Part shown: in pieces, positions 2,396 to 32,538 of the stretch
Numbering within the stretch: the first letter of the stretch is position 1
Layout of the letters: each line of letters begins with the position of its first letter
NCBI GenBank assembly: GCA_020054495.1
Contig: JAHWGK010000009.1
Location: forward strand, 5,314 to 69,313
Length of the DNA stretch: 64,000 nt
Direction of reading: 5' to 3'
Source of the DNA: Thermoplasmata archaeon
Lineage (GTDB): Archaea; Thermoplasmatota; E2; DHVEG-1
Translations under genes and position numbers: made by a program
The notes under the pieces: model-generated
What the model saw: the letters and a program-made list of their open reading frames with translations, nothing else
Databases searched by the model: none
Told to the model about the DNA's origin: nothing

Positions 2396-4036
2396 TCATA
2401 TTGTAATAGGTAGCCCGTTTACCCCTTCCCTATAGAACGTCCAGATGAATTGTACGAACTCATAATAATCAAATATTTTTTCTTCAACCATCCTCTCTAA
2501 AATATGCTTTCGTTGATCGTACTCTGTGTATATTAGCATTGGTTCTTCAAGTCCTGCCATTGGTGCAATCCGTTGTTCTAAAATATAACTATTTCTATTC
2601 GCCTTAAACATATGGGTGTCATCCATCGCATTCCACTCGAATGCCTTTCTAGACATGACACCATCTACTTCCTTGTTGTATCCTTCTATTTCATCTACAG
2701 AGAGAACTCGCCTGATTTTCTTTCCCTTCCGTTCAACAGCCATCTGTATTACCACAATATCCAAGTTGTCCATAAATGTTTTAGGTATGTTAATCGGATG
2801 CCCTGTAAAACGCTGTATAACCTTTGTTACTGAACCAGCGTGAAAAGTTGTAACAATTGGATGCCCTGTCTGCATAGCTTGAAAGACAACTCGACTTTCT
2901 GCTCCTCTTGTCTCACCAGGGATGATATAGTCTGGTCTCGATCTTAATCCAGCTAATAAAAGAGTCCCCTCATCAATATGTCCTTCTTTTGGACCTGTCG
3001 TTCTAGTTAATAATTGTTGCCAAACAGCATGAGGAAGCTTCACTTCAGGGGTGTTTTCCACAGAATATATTTTTTTATCTGGAGGAATAAATGGAAATAT
3101 TGCATTTGCAGTGGTTGTTTTACCAGCTGCAGTTTCACCACAGACAAAAATACTTCGCCCATATTGTAGAGAAAGCCAGAGATAAGCTGCGATTCCAGAA
3201 TCGATTGTTCCCCAATTTATCAGTTGGGTTACACTAATAGGTGTTTCACTAAACTTTCTAACAGTCATGCTCGGCCCTTTTAGACTTACATCTTTACTAT
3301 GAATAATATTAACCCTACTACCATCTGGGAGGGTACCATCAGCAATAGGTTGCCCTTCACTTACAGGACTGCCGATTTTCTCTGCAAATTCTTGTGAAAA
3401 TCTATTTGCCCATGATTTGTCGATATGAATATTTGTCTTAACCATGTCAAAAACTTTATGGATAAGATGGACGTTTTCTCCAGTTATAATATGAATATCT
3501 TCAATGTATGGATCTCTCATAAACGCTTCGAGAGGCCCACCACCAACAATGTCCTTAATTATGTCGTATTGGATATTCATCTTTTCAATGGACGTAACTC
3601 TTATCCTACCTCGGCTAACTTTTCCTATTTTGCCCTTGGATTTTTCGTCAACAACAGTTATTTTATCTATAACTTTTTTAATTGTTTTTCTTAAATCATC
3701 TTGAGTTTTAATATCTGTTTTGAGATGAGCTCTCTCATACAACATTTCAAGAATTATGTCGCGTTTTTCTTTTGTTTTTTTATCTAATTCAGGTGTAACA
3801 GTGTGATATTCTGGTCTTTCCATGTCTTTTGATTTAAAGACGTGTATAAAAACAGAACCTCTAGTGGTATAAATGATATTAGGGAATTCCTGCTCTTTTA
3901 CATCTCGAGGAACTTTACTATAATATATTGGACTGCCCATACTTTTTTCAATTTCTTCAACATATTTTTTAAGATGGAGATTGTCCTTAAGCAGTTTTTC
4001 AACCTCTGATTTTTCTATCTCTGTCATATCTCCCAC
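2396..4036 (-). CDS. arlI: ArlI/FlaI archaellum ATPase, paralog 1 (likely true start ATG 4027 after GTGGGAGAT)
   Basis: Walker A VCGETAAGKTT, DYIIPGETRG, GHPIVTTFHAG, typical of FlaI/VirB11-type secretion ATPases. Directly downstream of arlH. Confidence 0.92.
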   Translation of the reverse strand: MGDMTEIEKSEVEKLLKDNLHLKKYVEEIEKSMGSPIYYSKVPRDVKEQEFPNIIYTTRGSVFIHVFKSKDMERPEYHTVTPELDKKTKEKRDIILEMLYERAHLKTDIKTQDDLRKTIKKVIDKITVVDEKSKGKIGKVSRGRIRVTSIEKMNIQYDIIKDIVGGGPLEAFMRDPYIEDIHIITGENVHLIHKVFDMVKTNIHIDKSWANRFSQEFAEKIGSPVSEGQPIADGTLPDGSRVNIIHSKDVSLKGPSMTVRKFSETPISVTQLINWGTIDSGIAAYLWLSLQYGRSIFVCGETAAGKTTTANAIFPFIPPDKKIYSVENTPEVKLPHAVWQQLLTRTTGPKEGHIDEGTLLLAGLRSRPDYIIPGETRGAESRVVFQAMQTGHPIVTTFHAGSVTKVIQRFTGHPINIPKTFMDNLDIVVIQMAVERKGKKIRRVLSVDEIEGYNKEVDGVMSRKAFEWNAMDDTHMFKANRNSYILEQRIAPMAGLEEPMLIYTEYDQRKHILERMVEEKIFDYYEFVQFIWTFYREGVNGLPITI

Positions 4037-17278: not shown

Positions 17279-20200
17279 CTAGGCTTTGTAATGTTCGATG
17301 TAGTACCCTTCTGCAACGAACTCAATTTTATCATAAGTTTTTGGTAATGTAAATTCAAGGTAGTATTCATCTCCCTCTTTCAAAATAAGATAATGATCAT
17401 CTGAATATCTCAGAAGTTGCCTATTTATTAATGATGTAAATGATTCTTCAGTTAATGGCTTTGAGATTGATAATTGAGTTTTAATATTATCTAATTCAAC
17501 TATCTGGCCATCATTTATTCTAAGATAGATGTGATCAAGGTATGTTGTCTCATCAAGCTCCTCAGTGATTTTCAACATCACCTTTCCATCGATTATATCT
17601 ATTTTTCTAGTAATGTCTATAAGCTGTGTGTATTTATTATCAAGTGCTATTGCCCCTGGTATAAAATCTGAAAGTTTTCTGAATTCTTTATCTCTAAATA
17701 AATAAAGGAAAGGCGAAGCTGATGGAGTGTAATTCACTTCCACGTAGACTTGTGTGCAGTTACTATATTGATAGTCGCGTCCTATTAAGGCTACGCCAAC
17801 TTGAAGTTGATCTATTTCAGTCCATGTCCAGTTGGAACTAGTAAATGGGTTTGTATCATGGTTCCAGCTATAGGTTACATAGCTAGTGGTTAAAGTAACA
17901 GACGTATCGCTGTCATAAAAGTCCCTTGCCCCACCATTATACATAGCCGGTTTCATATCATTATCGACTGGTGGACCACCACCGGTGCCATATTTTGTAC
18001 CAACTAGATAAATAGTGACATTATTGATATCGCCAGTTTCAGTGGTATGAGGTTGGAGAATGTAGGTATCATTAATGTAGGTGGCTTGATCGTCTGTGTA
18101 TACAAAATCGGTATCTCCATTGTGTGTTTCCTCATCAACAGATTGCCAATTTGGATTATCCGGCACGCCGAGAGGTCCATTTGCTAGCTGTTCAGATTGC
18201 CCCGTGTTAATCGGTCTTATTGTTAGAGTTTGTGGCGGGGTTGTTGTAAAGTTATATGTTCTATTTGCCCATGCTGTGTAATCTGTGACATTTACACTCC
18301 ACCAGTATTTTGTATTTGGGCTGTCCATACTTTCATTTGTTTGACTGTATGTTCCGTTGTAAACAGAATCATTATATCCAATTAATCCCCAAGATCCTGT
18401 CACATTAGTATAAAAGGTAACATTCATGGCGTCAATGTTAGTATCGTTTACTTGTATTGACAAAGTTGGAGTTATACCTTGGCCAGTTGCACCATCACTT
18501 GGACTTGGGCTGCTTTGTGTTGGTGCAACGTTTTGTATTTCTTGACCACCAAATGCTATGAATAAACTTGGGGAACTAGTTGTGTTATATGTTGCGTTTA
18601 TCCAGCTGGTATTACGAGCGATTTTTGAGATTCTAACTTCATCAATCTTTCCATCCCAATATTCTGGATCAGCTGAATTGTTTTCTCTACCAATCATCAA
18701 AGGAACTGATTGAGTTGATGGATTTGATGCGACTGCATCAGCTGTTCCTTCTGAGCTACTATTAACATATAATCTTAGATTACTTCCATCATTTATTCCC
18801 ACCACATAGTGCCAGCCAGTTGATGTCAAGTCAGTATTACCATTAGCGGTCTCAGTTCCGCCACCTGAGTTACTAAATGTTACAACAGCAATACCATCAG
18901 TTGTATTTGAATATAAGGCAAAGTTTCTATCTGTGGAATCATCGATTTGTTTATTGATCATAAAATGATGGTCAGATTTATCATCTAATGTTACCCAGCA
19001 TTCAAGACTGAATGAACTAAGATTAAAATCAGAATGATGATTTTCATCCATATAATCTGCATCTCCTTCTAAATCATCAGCTCCATTTGCAATACCAGTT
19101 GCGTCAGTATCCGAATCACTGTCTGTATCATGGAGTGTTAAATCATGGTCGTTAGATGTTGAATCGTTATGGTTTTGCCCATTAGATGGTGCATCATGAA
19201 GATGCCATATTCCAACAAAATTACTATCCCATACATTTGTTACGTCCTCTCTATTTGCAGTACATACTGTGTTTCCATAATACATATATATTGTTGTATT
19301 TGTTGAAGAAGATAGACTTGTAACATTAACCCAAGCAACAAGTTCACCGTTACTATTATCATATTTTTCAATTTCATGTGCCAACTTATCTGTATATGAG
19401 CCATTCATCCAATCAACAGTAGTAATCATAAACATGATATCATTACCACTTGAATGCGCGTTATTTTTAAGATCGTCATCGGTAGTACTAATTAGAACCG
19501 GAAAGTTAGTAAGATCTTCATCAATCATTGAAGCATTTATCCATATTTGCTTTCGATAACTCCATGTTTTTAAAATCCCTTCTTGACTACCAAATGTAGC
19601 AAAAGTTGTTGGGCTATTTGTATTATAATAAGTTGTATTTATCCAGTCAGCACTTCTTGCTGTATTAGAAATACGAAGTTCATCCAAAGTTCCTGTAAGG
19701 TACTCTCCAATTTTTAAGTCGTTATTATTTGTATTAATGCTACTTGAGTAACTAGTGTCATCTACTTCGTCTCCATCTCTATATAACCTTATTGTTGAAC
19801 CATCATAAGTTAACACAACATAATGCCAATTAGTATCAATTGAACAAGTTGCACTATTGCTATTAATATAACCATATACGGTAGTGCCTCCAGGATTCAT
19901 TTCAAGTGAATAAGCATTTTGTCCTTTACTTATAATTTCTTTATTTGCTCCAATCGTTGTAAAATGATATGTTGCATTAGTCCACTCACCCTGACTGTCA
20001 TTTACACAAACTTTCCAATAATAAGTTTGACTGTTTGAAGAAAAGTTTGAGTCAACATCTGCTTGGGAATAGGTTCCATTGGTTTTTGAATAATTTGTAC
20101 CAACTAAATTTGGACAACTACTATCTGCTCCCCAGTACCATGTGATATCCATCTGTAATGAATCACTGTGATTTACTTGAATTTCAAGAGTCGGATTCAA

Positions 20201-23200
20201 ACTTACTCCGGTACTTTCATTTGAAGGATTTTCATTTGATAATATGGGTTTGTTGTTTGTAGTATTGCTACCACTTTCATTATCATCTGACCACTCATCA
20301 AGTGTTGGGTTATATGTCCAAGTTGCATAGCTCCATGCTTGATAATAATAAATGACTCCGGCTGTTAACCCGGCGTCTTCATAATTAGAGCCGCTGTCAT
20401 TATAAACTTCTATTCCTTCACCTCTATCCCAACTTGTTACCCCACTTTGATTTCTTTCAATATAAGTTGTATTAGCACCATCTCCCGCGGTCCATGTTAG
20501 ATAAATAACTGATGAGCTATTTGTTTGGATATTTAATGTTCCTGATACTGTAGCATTTGGTTTTGTTAGAAATGTTAGTTCAATCCCAGTTGAAAAACCT
20601 CCACTATTGTTTGCCCATGCTGTAAAATAATATAGTTGTCCTGGTATTAAATCACTTGAATTATTACTAAATGCATTTCCTTCTGAGACTGTTCCAACAG
20701 TAATATTTGTCGAAGTTCCACCAGAAGTTGTATCTAACCAAAAACCACAAGTTGTAGTTCCATTTCCATCATCATTTAATAATCCATTTAGAGTTGCATT
20801 TGTTTCTTCAACGCCTGTTGCAGCATTTGTAGTAACAGTTGGAGAACCCGCACCTGTAGTAAAATGATATGTTGCATTTGTCCAATTGCACCCGTCTGTT
20901 AAATTTATACTCCAATGGTAAGTAACTCCAGGATCACTAAAGTTTGTATTTGTTTGTGTTATGTTTGTTCCTGTGCTTATACTAGTATTGGTTGCGAAGT
21001 CTACCCATGTCTCTGAGCTGTTGCTTCTCCATGTCGCTGTCATGGTGTCGCTGTCTGCATCTGTACATATTACATACAAAGCAGGCGTTGTAGTTATACC
21101 TGTGCTTTGGTTTACTGGTGATTCTCCGCTTTGTGTTGGTTCACTGTTTGTAGTGAAGTGATATGTCTCATTACTCCAACCTCCTTCTCCATCTGTTAAA
21201 TTTATACTCCAATAGTATGTAGTTCCTGGGTTGCTGAAGTTGCTGTTAGTTTGAGTAATATTTGTATTATTTGCTATACTATTATTTGAGGCAAAATCAA
21301 CCCAAGCTCCTGAGATGTTGCTCCTCCACGTTGCATTCATTGTGTCTCCGTCATTATCTGTACAAATTACGTAAAGTGCGGGTATTGGACATATATTCAA
21401 ACTCTCATTAGTTGGACTCTCGCCTGATTGTGTGGGTTCATTATTTGTAGTTTGGTTTGTACTACTATTTTCATCTGACCATTGATGAATAGTAGGATTA
21501 TAAGTCCAATTAGCAAAGGTCCAAGCTTGATAGTAGTATCGTAATCCTTCTAAGAGACCTGTATCTTCATAGTTCGTCCCACTACCATTATAAATTTCAG
21601 TACCATCCCCTCTAGCCCAAACAGTAACGTCACTTGCATTCCGTTCAATGTATGTGGTGTTATATCCTGTTCCACCAGTCCATGATAGATAAATCATTGA
21701 TGTGCTATTTCTCTGCGAAATAAATGAACTAGGTACGTTTGGTTTTGTAAGAAATGTCATCTCTGAGCCATTAGCAAATCCTTCGCTATTGCTGGCCCAA
21801 GCTTGATAGAAATAGATCTGACCTTGGCTAAGGCTCTCATTATTATTACCAAACTCTGTATTGTTTGCTATTGTTCCCACACTAAAGTTTTCGGAATAAG
21901 TTCCTGAGCTTGTTCCAAATCTAAATCCACAGGTTGTATCGGCACTACCATTGTTTTGTAAGTATCCTCTGAGTGTTGCATTTGTTTCCTCTATTCCTAT
22001 AGATGCATTAGTTGTGACCGTAGGTGCTGATACTGTTGTTGGATTATAGTAACAACTTGCATCATCACTGCTTGGAGCAAGCTCCATATTACTTGAGTTA
22101 TCCTCTGCTATGCTGTAAAATTCATAATATCCAGTTCCGTTTGGAAAATTGAAATTCCAGGAAGCTGCAACCCATGGATCTGTATCGGGATTGCTTGCAT
22201 CGTTCCATTTAGTCCACCCCTCTCCTGCGAAATGTTGTGAGAATGCTACAATACATACTCCTCTATCATCATGCATTGCATTACCGCCATCTTCTCCATT
22301 TGCCTTTAATAAATAATTATAAGTGTTTGTGTTTAAAACACTATTGTTATCAAACATTATTGCGTATCCTATATCTGGACCCTCGGAATTTCCCTTATTG
22401 TTCCAACTACATATTCGATTTGCGCCAGTTTGTTTGCATGCAGTTGATGCAGCTCCAGTCTTGACAGAAAGAGCTTGGTATTGTATTGCAGCGGCCCATG
22501 GGTCATTAGGGGGATCACCTGAACCGTCATGTTCATATCTACCCCCCCAAAATGTTATAACGGTGCCATTAAACGTTGGATTATAACCACTTGCATTTCC
22601 TAGTTCAGTCCATGTACTATGAGGAATTTCGGTATTTGCAGAAGTTTGGTTATATGTGTAATTAAAAAATGCACTAAGATTCAATATAAAAATTTGACTG
22701 GATTGTTTATCATGAACATTATCCCCACAGAAATCTAATCCATACGTTTTTGAAGGCACAGCTGGTGATTCTAAAACATAAATTAAACTAAGCACCGATT
22801 CGTCATTTGAAGATTCTCCATCTCTTTCGACTGCTGTTTTTTCAGTTTTTACCGCGCCTGTATCTTCCGTTAATCTCATCATTAACAAATCATCACTAAC
22901 AGCATCGATTTCACATCTACTTGTACCCATAACAAGATAGTCACTACTCCCATCTGGAGTGAATGTAATGCTGGCACCAGATGTACTCCAGCTATCATCC
23001 ATATCATCCGATACTGAAGTATCATCATCATACCAATAATCAGAATTTTCAGTTAAATTGTCAAGTGGAATAGCCATTAATGATATTTCATCGAAATAAA
23101 CATTCAACACTGAGAGTGCATCTTGTGTTGCGTATAAGTCAATATCTTCTTCACTAACAGCAGTCCAATTGATAAATGTAAAATAAACCCAAGCTGAATT

Positions 23201-26200
23201 CTCATCACTAGGACCAGATTGTTGCTCATGAGTCTCTGTAAAAACAGAACCTCCATGCCTTATTCTTAGTCCTGCTACACAATCACTAAGATCATCATCT
23301 GCTCGAGCATGAGCTGAAGCAACAAGTAAATATTCATCTCCAACTATAAAATCGCCAGAATCCAGTGTTACTAGTGCTTGTGGACTTCTTCTTTCTACTG
23401 TTTGTTCGGTATTCTGCTCAGCATAGATTACTCCAATTTCGTCAGTTTCAGCAGTAAAATTATCGCTAGAGTATCTATAATAAAGTGTAACATTTTTTAA
23501 ACCAGATTCACTATCACTTGCTGTTGCAGTTATTGACAAAGGCGAACTTGTTTGCTCATAAGGAGAGATAGTATCTATACTTGACGTGGGTATGGTAGTA
23601 TCAGCTACAGTTGTAAAATGATATGTTTCATTATTCCATTCTCCTTCACCATCAGATACGTTGACACTCCAATAGTATTTTGTATTGTAACTACTAAAGT
23701 TTGAATTAGTTTGTGTAATGTTTGTATCTGGACTAATACTATTATTATATGCAAATTGAACCCAGCTTTCTGATGAGTTACTCCACCATGTTGCATTCAT
23801 AGTGTCACCATCCTCATCAGAAACTATTACATATAACGCAGGAGTCACACTTACCCCAGTACTTTCATTAGTCGGTGATTCTCCACTTTGTGTTGGTGCA
23901 TAACTAATTGAAATAGTAATAGTATCATTATCAGCTTTACCATAATTATAAACATTATCCCTTGCCCAAACATAATAAGTATTAAGTCCTTCAACACCAG
24001 TATCAGTATCTTCTCCATCATTCCCAGCATCTTCATCAGGAGTTGCATCACCGATTTCTGCAAAATGTGTATCTATTCCACTGCCACTCCCATCACTTGA
24101 AGTATCCCATGTGAAATATATTTCTGTATCATCATCTATTTCACCTTCATCCTCATATCCATCTGGTCTGCATTGAGCATTTGTTGTAGCAGTTGGAACT
24201 TCATCGTCTCTTGTGCAATCAACTTCTATTCCTGCAGCAGTTACATCAGAGCCTCCTGAGCATATTCCTTGTATTGCTACATCCCAATCGGCATTTGTCT
24301 CAAGTGTTTTATCATCAGCGGGAGTATATGCTGGAATTGAAAATGAACCAGAACTAATTGTATTATCTTTATAGGAACTACCTAAATCATCAGGGGTTCC
24401 ATCCTCATCTGTATCATAAAATAGTTGAACCTCAGTAGACCCACTACAAATATCATCATATGATGAATCAAAAGTCTGTGATGAACCTTGATATTCAACT
24501 GTACCAGTTGCTGTTACTGGATATCCGCCATTAAAAAAATCATTATCATTAATTTGCCCGGCAGTTCCTCCATATTCATAATTATCATCAATTGATAATG
24601 TTAATGAAACAACTTCTATGTCGTTTTCAAATGTATATGATCCTGCTTCATAGGTAATATAACCACATGTATACCCTAATTCATCATCAGTCCATGCAAC
24701 TACATCATAGTCAAAATCATCAGCGAGAAAATCCCAATCTGGGATAAACTGCCATGTTAAACGGTAACCTCCGGTTATTGCAGTTTCTGTTACACTACAT
24801 CCAGTTATCGATACATAACTTGAGCCAGCATAAATTGTAAAGGCATTTGTATCAACATTATAATTTAGAGTAAAAGAGGATAAACCAGCAGATATTCTAA
24901 GCCTACAATCATCTACATATGAACAACCTGTACCACTACATCCACCATCGATATGCTCTGTTATAATCGTAGTTGATTTTTTCCCGGCAAACAGATTTGC
25001 AGCACCAGAGATATATTCTGCTGCGGCTTGGTAATCAAGTTCAACATATGGCGTTTTACTACCAGAACTATAATCATTTGAATAATATTTTGCAGCATAG
25101 CTTGTTGATCCTGTTTCTGAACTATCCCTTATCATCCAGCCATAAGTTGTAGTTTGCAAAACTCTGGATTGAAAATTGGATGTAACATCCCAATCTTTAT
25201 ATTCATAAGTACTACCAAGTACCCTCCCATCAGTATATGTTGTTGCACTATTTTGATTATCCCAATCTAATTCACTACCTTGTGCAGTTGCAGCACATCG
25301 AGCTCCTTCTACCCACTGTGAAGGAACGGCACTTACAATATAACAATTGTGTGTTCGACTTGCGGGACTAGATCCAGAATATCCATAGTAATATACATTT
25401 AAGTCTGCATCATCTATTCTTGCATTAGTTAAATAAGAAGGTATACCTGAACTAGAAACATCAATAAACATACGATTTATTTGCTGTTGAGAACCTAGAA
25501 TTCCATGTTTTGGATCTACATACATATATGTACAAGTACCATAATTATAGCCATTATAATACTCACTTACAAAAGAGTCATAATTACAATCTAGTTCATA
25601 ACCTGCCGTATCAAGAGCATAATAATCTTTCCCCTCTGTAAAAACACCCTGCTGCCAACCAGAATAATCAAAAGGCTCTAGTGTTTTATTGTTTATTATT
25701 GCGTTATAAATATCTAAACGAGGATAATTGATACTAAAATTTTCATCATAATAAATATGATTTATTGGTTTACCAGTACTTTTTAATCGATAACTTAATT
25801 CATTCGGATCTAAATCATTTTGTTCTAGAACAAGTAATGCAGCCGCTGAAACATGTGGAGCACTGAATGATGTTCCTCTTCCTATGCCAGTTGGCGTTTT
25901 AATTTTAACTCCTGGTGCAAACATATCAAGTGTTGGATTAACATTAGAAAAACTAGCAACATTATCTGAACTACCAGTTGCGCTAACAGAAAATACCTTA
26001 GATCCACAAGATGGTGATTTTAGATATGTATCTCCATCATTTCCTGCTGCTGCTACAACAAATATTCCTTGATCAACTGCATCATTGCTCATCTCTGCAA
26101 CAAAATCACCATCACAAAATCCATCACAACCTCCTTGGGAACCAATACTAAAGCTGATAACATCTGGATTTTGTTCAATACACCATTCAATTGCTTCTAA

Positions 26201-28675
26201 AACATCAGATTCGTAACCAATACCGCTAGCGCCTATTACTTTTGCAACAATTAGTTCTGCATCAGGTGCAATACTCTTTATAATGGAAGCAACTTTAGTA
26301 CCATGCCCATATTCATCATCTGGAATATCATCATCATGAACAAAATCATAGCCATAGCTATAATTAACAATTGAAGAATCAACGCCTGTATCAATAATGC
26401 ATATTTTTTTACCCACTCCTGTAACATTAAACTCATTGATAGCCTCAGTGTATCTTATAATGGGTAAGCTATGTTCTAATAAAGTTGTATAGTTTTTATC
26501 AGGAAAAATTTCTGAAATGTCATTGTTAAACTTAATCGTATCATAAACTGATTTATTTATTACTCCTGAAATATATCCTTTTGATGATATCTCTGATTTT
26601 TTAATAAAACCGTCCTCTTCTAGTTCGGATACTTTTTTTGTAAAATTTTTCTTATCTTTATATTTAATAATTACTTGAACATTATCAATTTGCGATATTT
26701 CTTCAGCCACTTCCGACGGTAAACTTAATGGTTTATTAAAATAAATTTCATCTTTCCGCCAATTTTCAAAATACGATTGGTTATTAACTTTATTTTTCAA
26801 ATTTATAAATAAATTATCTAATACTGATTTGTTAACAAGGCCACTAAAATTTTTATAAGTATATCCATTTTCATTATCAGATATTAGAAACAAAGATGGA
26901 TATGAATCAATACCATAATTAGTAAATAATGAAGGATTTTGATTTTTATTTATATAAATTATTTCCAATTCGTTACTATATTTTTTATTTACATCAATCA
27001 ATATATCATCTTGAATTTTACAAATATCGCAATTGTCAGTAAAAAAATACAACAATACTGATTTTCCCAGATTTAAATTATTTTCAATATCTAACTCAAT
27101 ATTTCTTACATCTGAAATTGAAATTATGGAAAAACCTTCATTCTTGCATACTGTAATATTATCAATAAGAATTTTAATATCTGAAAATCCATAACTTGAA
27201 AGAAATTCAAAAGCTCTTATTTTATTAAGGTAGTTTTCGCCATAAATGATTACATTATTATCCTTATAATCTTCAAGCCTACTTAATAAACAAGGGCTAC
27301 AATTAAAATCTAATAATGGAATTGAAATCGAATCATAAATGTAATTAGAACTGTAATCCTCTTCACTTCTAATATCAAAAATTATTGCATTTTTGTTTGA
27401 ATTTACCATATCTTTGGCCTGTTGAGCAGTGATACCATATGGATTTTCATCTAAATCTTTGCTTTTTAGAGCATCTATTATAAACTCCAATATTGAAAAA
27501 GGATTGTTCCAGTTTGTTGAACCATATGAATTGTTCCAATGAGTAGTACTTTCATAGTCATATGTCCCATCAGAGGATATAACAAGATAACTGATTTTTC
27601 CATCAGAATAATGATTTTGTAACACTGTTTCAAAATCTATTTTAATTGTCTCTAAATCTTTAGTAATGAATGGCTTTGAATAAGCAATATAATCAAGGTT
27701 TTGTATTTTTTCGGGAAGTTTGATACGTATATTTTCAATTCTTTTTTCAATAGCTGAATTTGGTTTATTTTTATGATAGAATCCTTCAAATATAGATTCA
27801 AGATTTACAGATATATCCTTAATTTTTACTCCAAAAGAAAATAAAGTAATAAAGGTCAATTCCGTCTCTTTTTTTACAGAAATAGTTCTTTCAGCTGAAA
27901 ATTTATTTCCAGGAATAATTACTCGTTTTTCTTCTCTTTTATCAACAATTTTAATAGAAGTATCATCCTCAATTGTTTTCAATGGAGGGTCCTTTGCCCA
28001 CCCTTCAAGTGTAATACTATTTGTAATATTTAGACTGCTTGCATCATTAACAGTTATATTGTCGCTTCCATCAAAATCATATCCTCCATCTATTTTACTT
28101 GAAGTATTAGCTGTTGCGCCATTGTTAGTTCCATCGTTATCGTTTGATGTAGAATCAAATATTGAAGTTTGGTTCAAATGTTGAACCATTTTAAAGTTAG
28201 AATCCCATGTTTCAGAAATATTTTGTTGATTAGTGCAAGTTGGATTTCCATAATACATATATAAAATTGTATCTAAGGTTGATGAAAGACTTGAAACCTT
28301 TACCCATGCAGTGAGTTCACCCGTGCTACTATTATATTCTTCAATTTCGTGCTTGTATTGCGTTGTGTTGTAATGGTCTACAAATGCTATGTCACCACCA
28401 TCAGATTGTGCATTTGTAGCGAGATCAACATCTGCACTTTCGTAAATTAAAACCGGGAAATTTGTCTGATCAGAACCTACCTTAGTATGATCAATTGTAA
28501 TCTTCTTGCAATAAGACCAATTACAATTCCACCAGTCTGCACCTGATGAAACACTGAAAGAGTAGCCTGGTTTCGTTGTCATATATTGAGTTCCATATAA
28601 AAGAGTAGAGTTTATCCCACCAAATATGATAAGAACAACACATGCAGCAGCGATAAAAGCTAGTTTCTTTCTCAT
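17279..28675 (-). CDS. Giant 3,798-aa secreted/anchored multidomain surface protein (DUF2341, split LamG, rhodanese-like, thioredoxin-like, I9-like propeptide + S8 subtilase, beta-rich region, FN3-like modules, second DUF2341-LamG, C-terminal domain)
   Basis: The ORF track starts at 28774, but ATG 28675 has SD GGAGGG 5 nt upstream and opens a signal anchor MRKKLAFIAAACVVLIIFGG. Catalytic triad contexts CIIDTGVD / HGTKVAS / GTSFSAPH. Very dense N-x-S/T sequons. Confidence 0.9.
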   Translation of the reverse strand: MRKKLAFIAAACVVLIIFGGINSTLLYGTQYMTTKPGYSFSVSSGADWWNCNWSYCKKITIDHTKVGSDQTNFPVLIYESADVDLATNAQSDGGDIAFVDHYNTTQYKHEIEEYNSSTGELTAWVKVSSLSSTLDTILYMYYGNPTCTNQQNISETWDSNFKMVQHLNQTSIFDSTSNDNDGTNNGATANTSSKIDGGYDFDGSDNITVNDASSLNITNSITLEGWAKDPPLKTIEDDTSIKIVDKREEKRVIIPGNKFSAERTISVKKETELTFITLFSFGVKIKDISVNLESIFEGFYHKNKPNSAIEKRIENIRIKLPEKIQNLDYIAYSKPFITKDLETIKIDFETVLQNHYSDGKISYLVISSDGTYDYESTTHWNNSYGSTNWNNPFSILEFIIDALKSKDLDENPYGITAQQAKDMVNSNKNAIIFDIRSEEDYSSNYIYDSISIPLLDFNCSPCLLSRLEDYKDNNVIIYGENYLNKIRAFEFLSSYGFSDIKILIDNITVCKNEGFSIISISDVRNIELDIENNLNLGKSVLLYFFTDNCDICKIQDDILIDVNKKYSNELEIIYINKNQNPSLFTNYGIDSYPSLFLISDNENGYTYKNFSGLVNKSVLDNLFINLKNKVNNQSYFENWRKDEIYFNKPLSLPSEVAEEISQIDNVQVIIKYKDKKNFTKKVSELEEDGFIKKSEISSKGYISGVINKSVYDTIKFNNDISEIFPDKNYTTLLEHSLPIIRYTEAINEFNVTGVGKKICIIDTGVDSSIVNYSYGYDFVHDDDIPDDEYGHGTKVASIIKSIAPDAELIVAKVIGASGIGYESDVLEAIEWCIEQNPDVISFSIGSQGGCDGFCDGDFVAEMSNDAVDQGIFVVAAAGNDGDTYLKSPSCGSKVFSVSATGSSDNVASFSNVNPTLDMFAPGVKIKTPTGIGRGTSFSAPHVSAAALLVLEQNDLDPNELSYRLKSTGKPINHIYYDENFSINYPRLDIYNAIINNKTLEPFDYSGWQQGVFTEGKDYYALDTAGYELDCNYDSFVSEYYNGYNYGTCTYMYVDPKHGILGSQQQINRMFIDVSSSGIPSYLTNARIDDADLNVYYYGYSGSSPASRTHNCYIVSAVPSQWVEGARCAATAQGSELDWDNQNSATTYTDGRVLGSTYEYKDWDVTSNFQSRVLQTTTYGWMIRDSSETGSTSYAAKYYSNDYSSGSKTPYVELDYQAAAEYISGAANLFAGKKSTTIITEHIDGGCSGTGCSYVDDCRLRISAGLSSFTLNYNVDTNAFTIYAGSSYVSITGCSVTETAITGGYRLTWQFIPDWDFLADDFDYDVVAWTDDELGYTCGYITYEAGSYTFENDIEVVSLTLSIDDNYEYGGTAGQINDNDFFNGGYPVTATGTVEYQGSSQTFDSSYDDICSGSTEVQLFYDTDEDGTPDDLGSSYKDNTISSGSFSIPAYTPADDKTLETNADWDVAIQGICSGGSDVTAAGIEVDCTRDDEVPTATTNAQCRPDGYEDEGEIDDDTEIYFTWDTSSDGSGSGIDTHFAEIGDATPDEDAGNDGEDTDTGVEGLNTYYVWARDNVYNYGKADNDTITISISYAPTQSGESPTNESTGVSVTPALYVIVSDEDGDTMNATWWSNSSESWVQFAYNNSISPDTNITQTNSNFSSYNTKYYWSVNVSDGEGEWNNETYHFTTVADTTIPTSSIDTISPYEQTSSPLSITATASDSESGLKNVTLYYRYSSDNFTAETDEIGVIYAEQNTEQTVERRSPQALVTLDSGDFIVGDEYLLVASAHARADDDLSDCVAGLRIRHGGSVFTETHEQQSGPSDENSAWVYFTFINWTAVSEEDIDLYATQDALSVLNVYFDEISLMAIPLDNLTENSDYWYDDDTSVSDDMDDSWSTSGASITFTPDGSSDYLVMGTSRCEIDAVSDDLLMMRLTEDTGAVKTEKTAVERDGESSNDESVLSLIYVLESPAVPSKTYGLDFCGDNVHDKQSSQIFILNLSAFFNYTYNQTSANTEIPHSTWTELGNASGYNPTFNGTVITFWGGRYEHDGSGDPPNDPWAAAIQYQALSVKTGAASTACKQTGANRICSWNNKGNSEGPDIGYAIMFDNNSVLNTNTYNYLLKANGEDGGNAMHDDRGVCIVAFSQHFAGEGWTKWNDASNPDTDPWVAASWNFNFPNGTGYYEFYSIAEDNSSNMELAPSSDDASCYYNPTTVSAPTVTTNASIGIEETNATLRGYLQNNGSADTTCGFRFGTSSGTYSENFSVGTIANNTEFGNNNESLSQGQIYFYQAWASNSEGFANGSEMTFLTKPNVPSSFISQRNSTSMIYLSWTGGTGYNTTYIERNASDVTVWARGDGTEIYNGSGTNYEDTGLLEGLRYYYQAWTFANWTYNPTIHQWSDENSSTNQTTNNEPTQSGESPTNESLNICPIPALYVICTDNDGDTMNATWRSNISGAWVDFASNNSIANNTNITQTNSNFSNPGTTYYWSINLTDGEGGWSNETYHFTTNSEPTQSGESPVNQSTGITTTPALYVICTDADSDTMTATWRSNSSETWVDFATNTSISTGTNITQTNTNFSDPGVTYHWSINLTDGCNWTNATYHFTTGAGSPTVTTNAATGVEETNATLNGLLNDDGNGTTTCGFWLDTTSGGTSTNITVGTVSEGNAFSNNSSDLIPGQLYYFTAWANNSGGFSTGIELTFLTKPNATVSGTLNIQTNSSSVIYLTWTAGDGANTTYIERNQSGVTSWDRGEGIEVYNDSGSNYEDAGLTAGVIYYYQAWSYATWTYNPTLDEWSDDNESGSNTTNNKPILSNENPSNESTGVSLNPTLEIQVNHSDSLQMDITWYWGADSSCPNLVGTNYSKTNGTYSQADVDSNFSSNSQTYYWKVCVNDSQGEWTNATYHFTTIGANKEIISKGQNAYSLEMNPGGTTVYGYINSNSATCSIDTNWHYVVLTYDGSTIRLYRDGDEVDDTSYSSSINTNNNDLKIGEYLTGTLDELRISNTARSADWINTTYYNTNSPTTFATFGSQEGILKTWSYRKQIWINASMIDEDLTNFPVLISTTDDDLKNNAHSSGNDIMFMITTVDWMNGSYTDKLAHEIEKYDNSNGELVAWVNVTSLSSSTNTTIYMYYGNTVCTANREDVTNVWDSNFVGIWHLHDAPSNGQNHNDSTSNDHDLTLHDTDSDSDTDATGIANGADDLEGDADYMDENHHSDFNLSSFSLECWVTLDDKSDHHFMINKQIDDSTDRNFALYSNTTDGIAVVTFSNSGGGTETANGNTDLTSTGWHYVVGINDGSNLRLYVNSSSEGTADAVASNPSTQSVPLMIGRENNSADPEYWDGKIDEVRISKIARNTSWINATYNTTSSPSLFIAFGGQEIQNVAPTQSSPSPSDGATGQGITPTLSIQVNDTNIDAMNVTFYTNVTGSWGLIGYNDSVYNGTYSQTNESMDSPNTKYWWSVNVTDYTAWANRTYNFTTTPPQTLTIRPINTGQSEQLANGPLGVPDNPNWQSVDEETHNGDTDFVYTDDQATYINDTYILQPHTTETGDINNVTIYLVGTKYGTGGGPPVDNDMKPAMYNGGARDFYDSDTSVTLTTSYVTYSWNHDTNPFTSSNWTWTEIDQLQVGVALIGRDYQYSNCTQVYVEVNYTPSASPFLYLFRDKEFRKLSDFIPGAIALDNKYTQLIDITRKIDIIDGKVMLKITEELDETTYLDHIYLRINDGQIVELDNIKTQLSISKPLTEESFTSLINRQLLRYSDDHYLILKEGDEYYLEFTLPKTYDKIEFVAEGYYIEHYKA
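18243..23900 (-). repeat. Repeated ~95-aa (E/A)PTQSGESP...YHFTT modules (5 copies) and a duplicated ~290-aa FN3-like pair
   Basis: Module copies at about 23608-23900, 21152-21445, 20856-21150, 19955-20260 and 18243-18532. The PTVTTNA..EETNATL..TTCGF + FLTKPN.. pair occurs at about 21450-22030 and about 20262-20848. Confidence 0.75.
18550..19560 (-). other. Intact second DUF2341 + LamG module of the giant protein
   Basis: WSYRKQIWINASMIDEDLTNFPVLIST...GELVAWVNVTSLSSSTNTTIYMYYGN...WDSNFVGIWHL, then ...FSLECWVTLDD...WHYVVGINDGSNLRLYVNSS...GKIDEVRISKIARNTSWINATYNT. Confidence 0.65.
25740..26720 (-). other. I9-like propeptide (about 26440-26720) + S8 subtilase catalytic domain (about 25740-26425)
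   Basis: VQVIIKYKDKKNFTKKVSELEEDGF... then Asp (IIDTGVD, about 26391), His (HGTKVAS, about 26304), Asn (AAAGNDG), Ser (GTSFSAPHVSAAALL, about 25865). Confidence 0.8.
26800..27080 (-). other. Thioredoxin-like domain with CxxC (CDIC)
   Basis: GKSVLLYFFTDNCDICKIQDDILIDVNKKYSNELEIIYINKNQNPSLFTNYGIDSYPSLFLIS. Confidence 0.6.
27133..27445 (-). other. Rhodanese-homology domain lacking the active-site Cys
   Basis: GITAQQAKDMVNSNKNAIIFDIRSEEDY...NVIIYGENYLNKIRAFEFLSSYGF. The position of the catalytic Cys loop reads YGENYLNK. Confidence 0.55.
28175..28535 (-). other. DUF2341-like domain 1 of the giant protein
   Basis: WWNCNWSYCKKITIDHTKVGSDQTNFPVLIY...GELTAWVKVSSLSSTLDTILYMYYGN...WDSNFKMVQHL. Same pattern as the second copy at about 19210-19560. 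Confidence 0.6.
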
Positions 28676-28676
28676 G

Positions 28677-28850
28677 TTACCCTCCTGAAGAACAATGATT
28701 ATCAATTTTTTTAATCTTGATTTCACCGTTTTTAAGAGGGATGATTTCAACGATATCTCCACGGTTGATATCAAAGGCTTCTACAAGTTGACTAGGAATT
28801 GTTACAACAATACTACTCCCTGATACACGAGTCTTGCGTGTTAGAGGCAT
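28677..28850 (-). CDS. AbrB/SpoVT-type small DNA-binding protein (57 aa), not in the ORF track
   Basis: My translation: MPLTRKTRVSGSSIVVTIPSQLVEAFDINRGDIVEIIPLKNGEIKIKKIDNHCSSGG. This fits the AbrB/MazE swapped-hairpin pattern (S..VtIP..l...l.i..GD.V.i....g.i.i). SD-like AGGATGGG before the ATG. Its TAA stop lies 1 nt before the giant gene ATG. Confidence 0.65.
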   Translation of the reverse strand: MPLTRKTRVSGSSIVVTIPSQLVEAFDINRGDIVEIIPLKNGEIKIKKIDNHCSSGG

Positions 28851-30521: not shown

Positions 30522-31214
30522 TTATGAATTAGTTGATGCTTTGAAGTGGATAAATATTGTACCAGTTGGTGAACCAGCTGATGCATCACTTTCGATATCT
30601 AGTGATACTTGTATCCAAACAAAATCACTAGTTTCATTAGTGGCATCCCAATCACTCACAGAGTACCTTACATGCGATGTTTCGTCCCATGGGGTTAGTA
30701 TATCTCCACCTCCACTGGCGTTCATATTTGTTGGATCAGCGTCCCCAGCACCAAGTGTCCATACAACATCATCAGCGTCATATAATGCTGCACCGCCCTC
30801 CACAACTTTAATTGGTGTTCCAGCATCTAGACTTACATCTGTATCTCTATCACCATGTAGCCATATATCTATGTATGAAGCATTGACGCCTGATACGTTA
30901 ATATATGTTATGTTAACAGGAAGGACTTCCTCGTTTACAATACCAAAAGTAGCTGTATAGTTTTTTTCAGAATTCGGCATCCAACTTCCTAACTCTATTG
31001 TTGCATATGGTGTAGTAGCGTTGTTGTTAACTCGTAACACTCTTTGATTATCACCTGATGAATTATCAGAACCAATATATCTTATATCAGACTCGCTCGG
31101 GTGAACAATAGAAAATGAATAAGTAACCCTTGTTGTAGCATACTGAGTAGCCATTGTCATACTTAAAACTACGAGCAATACGCCGGTTAGCATTAAGCGC
31201 CTGTCAATTCTCAT
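30522..31214 (-). CDS. Secreted beta-rich protein, paralog A (possible TasA/camelysin-like or DUF1102-like fibre subunit)
   Basis: RR-containing signal anchor MRIDRRLMLTGVLLVVLSMTMA, then TQYATTRVTYSFSI. Further segments are FGIVNEEVLPVNITYINV and a C-terminal GTIFIHFKAST. Confidence 0.4.
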   Translation of the reverse strand: MRIDRRLMLTGVLLVVLSMTMATQYATTRVTYSFSIVHPSESDIRYIGSDNSSGDNQRVLRVNNNATTPYATIELGSWMPNSEKNYTATFGIVNEEVLPVNITYINVSGVNASYIDIWLHGDRDTDVSLDAGTPIKVVEGGAALYDADDVVWTLGAGDADPTNMNASGGGDILTPWDETSHVRYSVSDWDATNETSDFVWIQVSLDIESDASAGSPTGTIFIHFKASTNS

Positions 31215-31830: not shown

Positions 31831-32538
31831 TTATGTCTCTGCTTTAAAGTGAATATAAATTGTACCCGTTGGTGTAGTACCGGATCCTGCGTCACTAGGT
31901 AGCTGTAATGATATTCCTACCCAGACGAAATCACTAGTTTCATTTACAGAGTTATTCGCATTATTATGTGAATACATTATACTTGAGGTACTGTCCCAGG
32001 GTGTAGTTAATTGCGTGCTTCCATCTGCACTCATATCGGTTGAAACTCCATTTCCTGCGGCTAGCGTCCATGCAACATCATCAGCGTCATATAATGCTGT
32101 ACCATCGTCTAATACTTTTACCGAGGCAGCACCATCACCGCCATAATCTGCATCTCGGTCTCCATGCAACCACATAGTCAGGTATGAATCATTAGTCCCT
32201 GATACATTAATATATGTTATGTTTACAGCAAATTGTTCTTCGTTAACAATTCCAAAAGCAGCTGTATAATTTTTATCTGAATTTGGCATCCAATCGCCAA
32301 GCTCCATTGTTACAAATTGTGTTCCAGTGCCGTTATCATTTACCCTTAATACTCTTTTGTTGTCATCGGACGAGTTATCTGATGCAATATATCTTATATC
32401 AGACTCGCTTGGATGGACAATAGCAAATGAATAAGTAACCCTCGTAGTAGCATACTGAGTAGCCATTGTCATACTTAAAACTACGAGCATTACACCTAAT
32501 AATACTAAACGTCTGTCTAATCTCATCCCATTACACAT
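31831..32538 (-). CDS. Secreted beta-rich protein, paralog B (likely start ATG 32526, MRLDRR...)
   Basis: About 70% identical by eye to 30522..31214. Signal anchor, then TQYATTRVTYSFAI. C-terminal GTIYIHFKAET. Confidence 0.4.
   Translation of the reverse strand: MCNGMRLDRRLVLLGVMLVVLSMTMATQYATTRVTYSFAIVHPSESDIRYIASDNSSDDNKRVLRVNDNGTGTQFVTMELGDWMPNSDKNYTAAFGIVNEEQFAVNITYINVSGTNDSYLTMWLHGDRDADYGGDGAASVKVLDDGTALYDADDVAWTLAAGNGVSTDMSADGSTQLTTPWDSTSSIMYSHNNANNSVNETSDFVWVGISLQLPSDAGSGTTPTGTIYIHFKAET

Follow-up and report, generated by a model that had tools for sequence, protein, structure and literature searches.

The window analysed here is a 64,000-nucleotide stretch of a Thermoplasmata archaeon genome (contig JAHWGK010000009.1, positions 5,314 to 69,313), and the coordinates given below are those of the window unless a relative is named. 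Its minus strand carries a single unbroken open reading frame (ORF) at 17279..28774, whose start codon is probably internal, at 28675, yielding a giant protein of 3,798 residues (Table 1). In this protein Pfam recognised DUF2341 twice, Laminin_G_3, rhodanese, thioredoxin and Peptidase_S8 domains, plus a CBM96-like region. The hydrophobic N-terminus, a putative signal peptide or membrane anchor, suggests export, and 120 N-x-S/T sequons are present; the protein is probably N-terminally anchored, glycosylated and located at the cell surface. Its first LamG domain is separated into two parts by 2,680 residues of other modules, and we consider it likely that this is a genuinely discontinuous ConA-like/LamG domain with a conserved split site and an exchangeable payload, the halves of which pair to form the base of that payload.

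Table 1. Features of the giant gene and of the small gene next to it, by window position.
Feature	Residues	Position	Strand	Basis or remark
57-aa SpoVT/AbrB (MazE_antitoxin-type) gene		28677..28850	(-)	Pfam PF04014, E 1.5e-9
Giant ORF, 3,798 aa		17279..28675, stop codon included	(-)	ORF from probable start MRKKLAF, GGAGG 7 nt 5' of ATG
N-terminal hydrophobic segment (MRKKLAFIAAACVVLIIFGGINSTLLYG)	1-28	28592..28675	(-)	read from sequence; kept in homologs
First DUF2341	~46-165	28181..28540	(-)	Pfam PF10102, 64.7 bits; module HMM
LamG N-half, ends ITLEGWAKDPP	~166-231	27983..28180	(-)	Pfam, module HMM, homolog alignment
Nested insert (payload), 2,680 aa, 8,040 nt	232-2911	19943..27982	(-)	profile alignments of flanks
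Domain X	~232-405	27461..27982	(-)	no known family; kept directly after KDPP in Thermoplasmatota relatives
Rhodanese-like domain	416-503	27167..27430	(-)	Pfam PF00581, 27.3 bits
Thioredoxin-like domain, C-D-I-C motif	534-619	26819..27076	(-)	Pfam PF00085, 31.2 bits; NCBIfam thioredoxin E 8e-9
Subtilisin-family S8 catalytic domain	755-967	25775..26413	(-)	Pfam PF00082, 113.9 bits; PDB 1dui
CBM96-like beta-rich region	~1031-1198	25082..25585	(-)	Pfam PF24517, 31.9 bits vs cut-off 26
Last FN3/Ig-like 'PTQSGESP...YHFTT' module	~2815-2907	19955..20233	(-)	repeated module
4-residue linker IGAN between last FN3-like module and C-half		19943..19954	(-)	
LamG C-half, starts KEIISKGQNAYSLEMNPGGTTVYGYI	2912-3030	19586..19942	(-)	PF13385 positions 53-150; module HMM ~196-333
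Second, uninterrupted DUF2341-LamG module	3036-3379	18539..19570	(-)	module HMM 8-333, 312 bits; PF13385 4-150, 84 bits
FN3-like module (residues ~3384-3470), then C-terminal ~330 aa without family match		17282..18526	(-)	

The N-half of the split domain (peptide FDSTSNDNDG...LEGWAKDPP, residues 173-231, window 28159..27983) follows the first DUF2341; the PF10102 profile matched in two stretches, with 64.7 bits against a gathering cut-off of 23.4. The C-half (KEIISKGQNAY...INTTYYNT, residues 2912-3019, window 19942..19619) resumes in the same frame after a gap of exactly 2,680 residues (8,040 nt). Against the Laminin_G_3 profile (PF13385), the N-half alone gave no match, the piece being too short to score, and the C-half alone covered profile positions 53-150 of 151 (56.3 bits; gathering cut-off 27.6), while the joined halves covered positions 2-150 (61.3 bits). 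A full-length match was reached only by the discontinuous pair, not by either half. Furthermore, in a hidden Markov model (HMM) built from 150 contiguous DUF2341-LamG modules (the module HMM), residues 46-231 occupied positions 3 to about 189 (269 bits), and residues 2912-3032 aligned well to positions ~196-333. Contiguous modules aligned over at least 85% of the joined halves of the window in 214 cases, and 205 contiguous modules aligned end to end with the joined halves of a relative, P0133. On these alignments, the flanks are complementary, non-overlapping parts of one domain profile and the interruption is a true nested in-frame insertion; the profiles confirmed that chance does not account for the complementarity of the two LamG pieces. 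An earlier note on this DNA, made from the letters alone, had placed two complementary LamG halves, the in-frame gap between them and an intact second DUF2341-LamG module at these positions, and in each respect it was borne out.

When the halves were concatenated, as the earlier note had suggested, structure prediction returned a complete ConA-like/LamG jelly roll. With a 40-sequence alignment, the AlphaFold2 model reached a predicted local distance difference test score (pLDDT) of 92.3 and a predicted TM-score (pTM) of 0.90, with about 15 strands, and the junction D-P-P/K formed a 4-residue turn between strands 67-74 and 79-83; without an alignment the model was uninformative (pLDDT 32). For P0133, MAFFT set the C-half start of contiguous homologs beside the KDPP of that protein, not past its insert, and only a shallow alignment of split-type rows came out clean. 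A Foldseek search of the PDB with the joined-half model found ConA-like jelly rolls (TM-score on the query, TMq, 0.70-0.77; E ~5e-10), with a sequence identity of only 10-18% to the solved structures: clostridial neurotoxins and NTNH proteins matched in their lectin-like HcN subdomain (TMq 0.70-0.77), and the arabinanase AbnA in its domain 4 (TMq 0.74; TMt 0.71). As a prediction made on a fusion rather than on the native chain, the model shows that the joined halves are compatible with a ConA-like/LamG jelly roll.

The payload was found, by profile and alignment, to be made of autonomous domains (domain X, rhodanese, thioredoxin, S8 and CBM96-like). The rhodanese-like, thioredoxin-like, Peptidase_S8 and beta-rich (CBM96-like) regions had all been listed in the earlier note and were recovered; the I9 propeptide that it also listed was not (see below). 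Domain X gave no significant Pfam or PDB match. It occurs in two to three tandem copies in the loci L011 (2801-5860) and L012 (1612-3573) and upstream of a DUF2341 in L026 and L027, and because of these tandem copies and other contexts it is, as far as its distribution tells, an autonomous, duplicable module deserving its own family definition. In the rhodanese-like domain, IIYG was read by eye, without an alignment, at the usual position of the active-site Cys. The S8 domain aligned with subtilisin BPN' (PDB 1dui; E 5.6e-33) across the DTG, HGT and GTSxxxP motifs, with the Asp/His/Ser triad aligned, and the subtilisin of the insert is thus active-looking. Downstream, the FN3-like modules are repeated, and HFTT closes every copy, including copies that do not stand beside a LamG. 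Internal repeats of the giant gene are 62-81% identical, and none are near-identical.

Both junctions of the insert recur in related genomes. A search with the first 420 residues retrieved homologs, at 50-63% identity, that run from KDPP into domain X and the rhodanese, and W226, D229, P230 and P231 are invariant in 12 homologs; these lists contained only proteins shorter than ~1.75 times the query, and the absence of giant homologs from them is uninformative. In a scan of GTDB species genomes, 32 loci were found, about 24 of which carry the N-half followed by domain X (43-73% identity), nearly all in uncultured Thermoplasmatales or Thermoplasmatota metagenome-assembled genomes (MAGs), and the organism of the window is thereby assigned to the same group. 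Where contigs were long enough, the C junction was also present in one continuous ORF, namely in L019, whose insert of ~1,871 residues contains a whole DUF2341-LamG module, and in L020 (~2,615 residues). Moreover, L002 carries both junctions around an insert of ~2,866 residues, in a broken gene. Identity to L002 is 64% in the N part, 65% in the C-half, 62% in S8, 48% in domain X and 35% in the rhodanese/thioredoxin region, and a similar pattern, with the halves about as conserved as the S8 core and more so than the neighbouring insert domains, was observed in L019 and L020. Across relatives both halves are conserved at 54-65%, and their motifs are kept across phyla. At the C junction, metagenome protein fragments run from the end of an FN3-like module (YHF[ST]T) through about four residues into K-x-I-I-x-K-G, and of 22 split relatives, 16-17 have the module end and its linker ahead of the C-half.

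These relatives also bear on whether the split could be an assembly or annotation artefact, either two loci joined into a chimera or repeats assembled wrongly. The source organism is uncultured, and the case rests on an assembled contig. On the other side, the ORF is continuous over 11.4 kb, the internal repeats are too diverged to be called near-identical, and independent assemblies of other samples and species reproduce both junctions together with their flanking modules (L002, L019, L020, P0121-P0125, P0256 and others). We regard such an artefact as extremely improbable.

The same split site was further detected in other lineages. The pattern E-[GA]-W-[VA]-K-D-P-P retrieved a Methanobacteriota MAG (L028), a Nanoarchaeota single-amplified genome (L031), a Pacearchaeota MAG (L034), a Thermoplasmata MAG (L033) and a Nealsonbacteria MAG of the candidate phyla radiation (CPR; L030), so that W-x-K-D-P-[PS] split sites outside Thermoplasmatota come from one genome each of Methanobacteriota, Nanoarchaeota, Pacearchaeota and Nealsonbacteria. 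In all five, the N-half stops at KDPP and the C-half follows 390-667 residues on, both lying within a single continuous ORF, as in L019 and L020, and the C-halves share the signature K-x-I-[IL]-x-K-G..AY.L....G..LYGYI. The inserts are mutually unrelated in content: that of L028, in protein P0133, has BNR-like repeats (by eye), that of L031 two complete DUF2341-LamG modules, and that of L034 a DUF2341 followed by other sequence. Payloads at this site thus range over BNR-like repeats, whole DUF2341-LamG modules or, as in the window, a subtilisin.

A search of 1.84 billion representative proteins with the joined halves gave 22,483 matches (E<=1e-3). Among the best 150 of these, about 12 carry W-x-[KQ]-D-P-P and then the C-half at a distance, with inserts of 342, 526, 539, 667, 1,198, 1,842, 1,871, 3,172, 4,211, 4,334, 4,737 and 5,470 residues, and the inserts of two K-D-P-S variants measure ~149 and ~333 residues; the other sizes recorded are 390, 499, 552, 616, 2,615, 2,680 and 2,866 residues. 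The 2,680-residue insert of the window is mid-range for the split subtype, at the lower end of which stand P0250 (~149 residues), P0365 (342), P0271 (539) and P0133 (552). Only one of 23 fetched proteins with the C-half signature, that of L001, is contiguous with the N-half, W-x-K-D-P-[PS] is found in 0 of 205 contiguous DUF2341-LamG modules, and the halves co-occur one-to-one in 13 of 14 complete proteins, the exception being a truncated sequence. In the sample examined, W-x-K-D-P-[PS] therefore marks a LamG subtype that is almost always split at this turn.

Three of these relatives deserve separate mention. P0133 (L028:9827-12841) is complete at 1,005 residues, with a transmembrane segment, DUF2341, the N-half, a ~550-residue insert, the C-half and a 90-residue tail; its source name is only DUF2341 protein and its precomputed Pfam list lacks LamG, which implies that the split conceals the domain from routine annotation. 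In L033 (6812-12034, MAG CSMAG_2056), the block of rhodanese, thioredoxin and subtilisin precedes the split LamG instead of sitting inside it, and the position of this block points to module shuffling around the split site; its S8 domain is 70% identical to that of the window, and its ~500-residue insert holds other sequence and one FN3-like module. In P0016 (L025:10001-12163, Methanobacteriota MAG LacPavin), a close relative of P0007, a segment of ~400 residues (~246-640) replaces domain X, starting with KDPPIGGAE-C-YDEKTQILTLDGW and ending in ...VLVRRGDGSAFWSGN-S. By eye this segment resembled a Hint/intein-like element; Pfam and PDB searches gave nothing, the NCBIfam match, to a Tes model that contains an intein, was weak (E 0.01), and the assignment was dropped.

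A homolog without the insertion, which the earlier note had proposed to look for, does exist. At L001, protein P0005 has the layout DUF2341-LamG-DUF2341-LamG with the first LamG uninterrupted, and it is 71% identical to the window protein in the N part and 66% in the C-half. The locus is syntenic, with the same PQQ-propeller, SSF transporter, 230-residue protein and AbrB-like gene upstream, and the SSF transporter of the window shares 88-90% identity with its counterparts in L003 and L001. At L001:8300-8330, within the second DUF2341-LamG module, the frame changes, P0005 stops and the sequence runs on in another frame; the gene may be decaying, or the contig may contain an error. A further search of JGI metagenome contigs for contiguous versions (DNA pattern W-[AV]-K, 2-12 residues, K-x-I-I-S-K-G-x-x-A-Y) returned only a chance match without LamG, a weak negative with no count of split versions alongside.

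From the uninterrupted layout, the earlier note had derived a history in which an ancestral [DUF2341-LamG]x2 protein of ~1,100 residues gained an 8-kb block here in one step, with L001, in the terms of the present data, as the survivor. L001 has exactly the layout and the syntenic position that this history predicts, more distant contiguous [DUF2341-LamG]x2 proteins exist (e.g., P0012), and GC content at third codon positions (GC3) over the first ~1,750 insert residues (0.145-0.18) is slightly below that of the backbone (0.20-0.29). However, a neighbour-joining tree built on the N part places L001 within a clade with 100% bootstrap support whose 15 other members are all insert-bearing, and further insert-bearing genes branch outside that clade. 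The L001 loop (WVKNSSFFTTIGSNKEIISKG) reads W-V-K-N-S-S-F-F-T-T-I-G-S-N-K-E-I-I-S-K-G, in which FTT and IGSN correspond to the end of the last FN3-like module and the linker (YHFTT-IGAN in the window), and the DPP that is invariant in split forms reads NSS; the halves are rejoined in register. Because it is nested among insert-bearing genes, keeps this FTT-IGSN scar and has lost DPP, L001 is most likely a secondary deletion derivative, not an ancestor. Moreover, the split is common to about 24 species and occurs at the same site in other phyla.

Composition agreed with this picture. GC is 24-29% over domain X and the rhodanese and thioredoxin domains (window 26000-27500), and GC3 of other genes is 0.18-0.30; relative synonymous codon usage of the insert correlates at 0.93 with the backbone and at 0.95 with other genes. 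The comparison of insert and flanks thus revealed no foreign signature and, as regards a recent foreign origin, only the mild difference in GC3. A recent, lineage-specific insertion in one step seems to us improbable, and the history told in the earlier note was not supported in that form. Since the repeats are diverged (62-81%), insert sizes vary and a foreign signature is lacking, the data fit an old insertion site whose payload would have changed as modules were gained, lost and shuffled, and fit a single 8-kb event less well.

The same conservation bears on whether the pieces might be vestigial remnants, i.e., half-domains that no longer co-fold and are either disordered or completed by domain X or by the FN3-like module. 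In the module HMM alignment, the match of the C-half does run on faintly into the FN3-like module before it (residues 2851-2911, HMM positions 132-195), and the association of the halves is one that we infer rather than see directly. Nevertheless, the posterior probability of this extension is low and hardly any of its residues match, domain X occurs autonomously, in two to three tandem copies and in other contexts, and other lineages have quite different sequence after KDPP or before the C-half. Furthermore, the halves are conserved to about the same degree as the protease core (54-65%) and co-occur in 13 of 14 complete proteins, and the deletion in L001 rejoined them in register. Degenerate halves are, in our estimation, even somewhat less probable than a recent insertion.

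In this context, we favor a discontinuous LamG that serves as the base of a payload loop. After the first DUF2341 would come the first beta-strands, up to the invariant W-x-K-D-P-P, where the chain would leave the LamG at a tight beta-turn and build a 2,680-residue string of autonomous modules, in the order domain X, rhodanese-like, thioredoxin-like, subtilisin, CBM96-like and FN3-like repeats. Four residues past the last FN3-like module, the chain would re-enter the LamG and supply the remaining strands (K-E-I-I-S-K-G...). After export, N-half and C-half would fold into one jelly roll next to DUF2341, so that both ends of the payload would be tied to a membrane-proximal base and the payload held in a loop as by a clasp. 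Were the payload cut, e.g., by its own subtilisin, the fragments would stay attached via the re-formed LamG. During evolution, the payload at this turn would have grown, shrunk and once been deleted.

Several points weigh against this scheme. The association of the halves around the insert and the clasp function are drawn by inference, and the fold model comes from an artificial fusion aligned with contiguous LamGs, so that its success was nearly preset. The surface location and the N-terminal anchor were read off the sequence by eye, and the census of split against contiguous forms covers ~400 fetched proteins. As to cleavage, the region of ~130 residues before S8 looks propeptide-like by eye, and an Inhibitor_I9 propeptide was not detected at E<=10 in residues 620-760 or 600-1010, which leaves autoprocessing by the subtilase between the LamG halves hypothetical. 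Finally, in L002 (JGI 3300076001, contig Ga0645781_01121, 11180-11300) the gene breaks right after domain X: a 408-residue ORF (P0004) ends in ...LRYLKK*, and the rest, of at least 3,127 residues including the C-half, takes up 15 nt on, at MKFQLED and in a different frame. This break could be an error, such as the gain or loss of 1 nt within an A-rich stretch; the gene could also be a pseudogene, or the split LamG could truly be made of two chains. Because the second ORF has no obvious signal sequence, as judged by eye, error or pseudogene is more likely.

The L002 arrangement, with N-half and C-half in different ORFs, is also what complementation in trans would predict, in which the two halves would come from different chains, or the C-half from a proteolytic fragment, and pair into head-to-tail polymers or a two-chain complex. 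An active-looking subtilisin lies between the halves, and inserts of thousands of residues give pairing within the same chain no obvious kinetic advantage. Two papers moreover propose that DUF2341 proteins, found among the giant proteins of Patescibacteria, are adhesins or belong to type IV pilus-like systems (PMC4858521; PMC11809585). Members with short inserts (~149-550 residues) would, however, most simply pair within one chain, the L002 break has the more likely explanations given above, and polymers are not directly evidenced; among the neighbours examined, none was noticed to be a pilus gene. Pairing in trans as the general arrangement is therefore about as improbable, in our view, as a recent insertion, and the discontinuous, same-chain LamG remains our preferred reading.

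A bolder extension of it is conceivable, albeit doubtful. The W-x-K-D-P-P LamG might be a payload-agnostic split-domain clasp, whose far-apart halves snap together after secretion and cyclise giant surface proteins or, after cleavage of the payload or in trans, hold chains or polymers together, and which might have spread by horizontal transfer across Thermoplasmatota, Methanobacteriota, DPANN and CPR. It is a matter of speculation whether the invariant Asp-Pro-Pro could be a programmed labile exit point.

The small SpoVT/AbrB gene adjoins the giant gene, its stop lying 1 nt before the ATG of the latter, and a small gene of this type also precedes the giant-gene orthologs in L001 and L002. Its presence upstream in all three suggests a conserved small regulator or operon partner; a toxin-like partner was not seen next to it. 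Farther upstream, two paralogous ORFs of 230 and 235 residues (30522-31214 and 31831-32538, both on the minus strand) gave no Pfam match. L002 carries two copies of this paralog too (64-70% identity), and about 10 further relatives have a single copy beside the giant gene.

Should the halves indeed fold together, this would be among the largest nested insertions known to us, and it would explain in a simple way how giant surface proteins of archaea and CPR could stay compact, with both ends anchored; the halves would also be a natural split-domain pair of possible use in protein engineering. In either case, 2,680 residues sit in one beta-turn of a small lectin-like domain, at a site that has been conserved while its payload was swapped, expanded and once removed. 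For annotation, the consequence is that profile searches see half a LamG or nothing, and the family is systematically mis-described.

In the literature searched (DUF2341/LamG, discontinuous jelly rolls and giant Thermoplasmatota proteins), a scope limited by the terms chosen, no description of a split LamG was found. Among DUF2341-LamG surface proteins, which their sources call MshQ-like, the window protein has the same module architecture, and its second module is an ordinary member; it differs in that its first LamG is split. Likewise, the joined halves resemble Laminin_G_3/ConA-like lectin-glucanase domains in matching the whole of PF13385 and in the TM-scores of the model (0.70-0.77), whereas the domain of the window is not contiguous, and automatic annotation misses it or sees the C-half only.

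Nested domain insertion is a well-known route of protein evolution, as in the PA domain within S8 subtilases or in Cas9, where RuvC is interrupted by the REC lobe and HNH. There, as here, a surface loop is interrupted by autonomous domains and the parent is seen only when its flanks are joined. To our knowledge, such inserts usually comprise one domain, or two, and up to several hundred residues, whereas here the insert reaches 2,680 residues (~5,470 in relatives) and many domains, at a conserved site with an exchangeable payload. In SMC and Rad50 proteins, the two halves of the head also lie far apart and are joined by an antiparallel coiled coil that folds back at a hinge, over ~1,000 residues or fewer. 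The likeness is that the distant halves of one globular domain tie the ends of a long element; the window protein differs in its spacer of unrelated globular modules, several times longer, in its jelly-roll fold and in its probable surface location.

GAIN and SEA domains cleave themselves within the domain, and the fragments stay non-covalently attached. The outcome proposed here, two chains held by a shared beta-sandwich after cleavage, would be similar, with the difference that the cut, itself hypothetical, would fall in the payload. Concanavalin A undergoes a post-translational circular permutation, in which a contiguous precursor is cut and religated; it shows that the surface loops of a ConA-like jelly roll can be broken and joined anew, whereas the case of the window is an encoded insertion. 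In brief, what appears to be new against these systems is a LamG subtype with a fixed split site and a hallmark motif, which carries payloads spanning nearly two orders of magnitude in length, in archaea and CPR.

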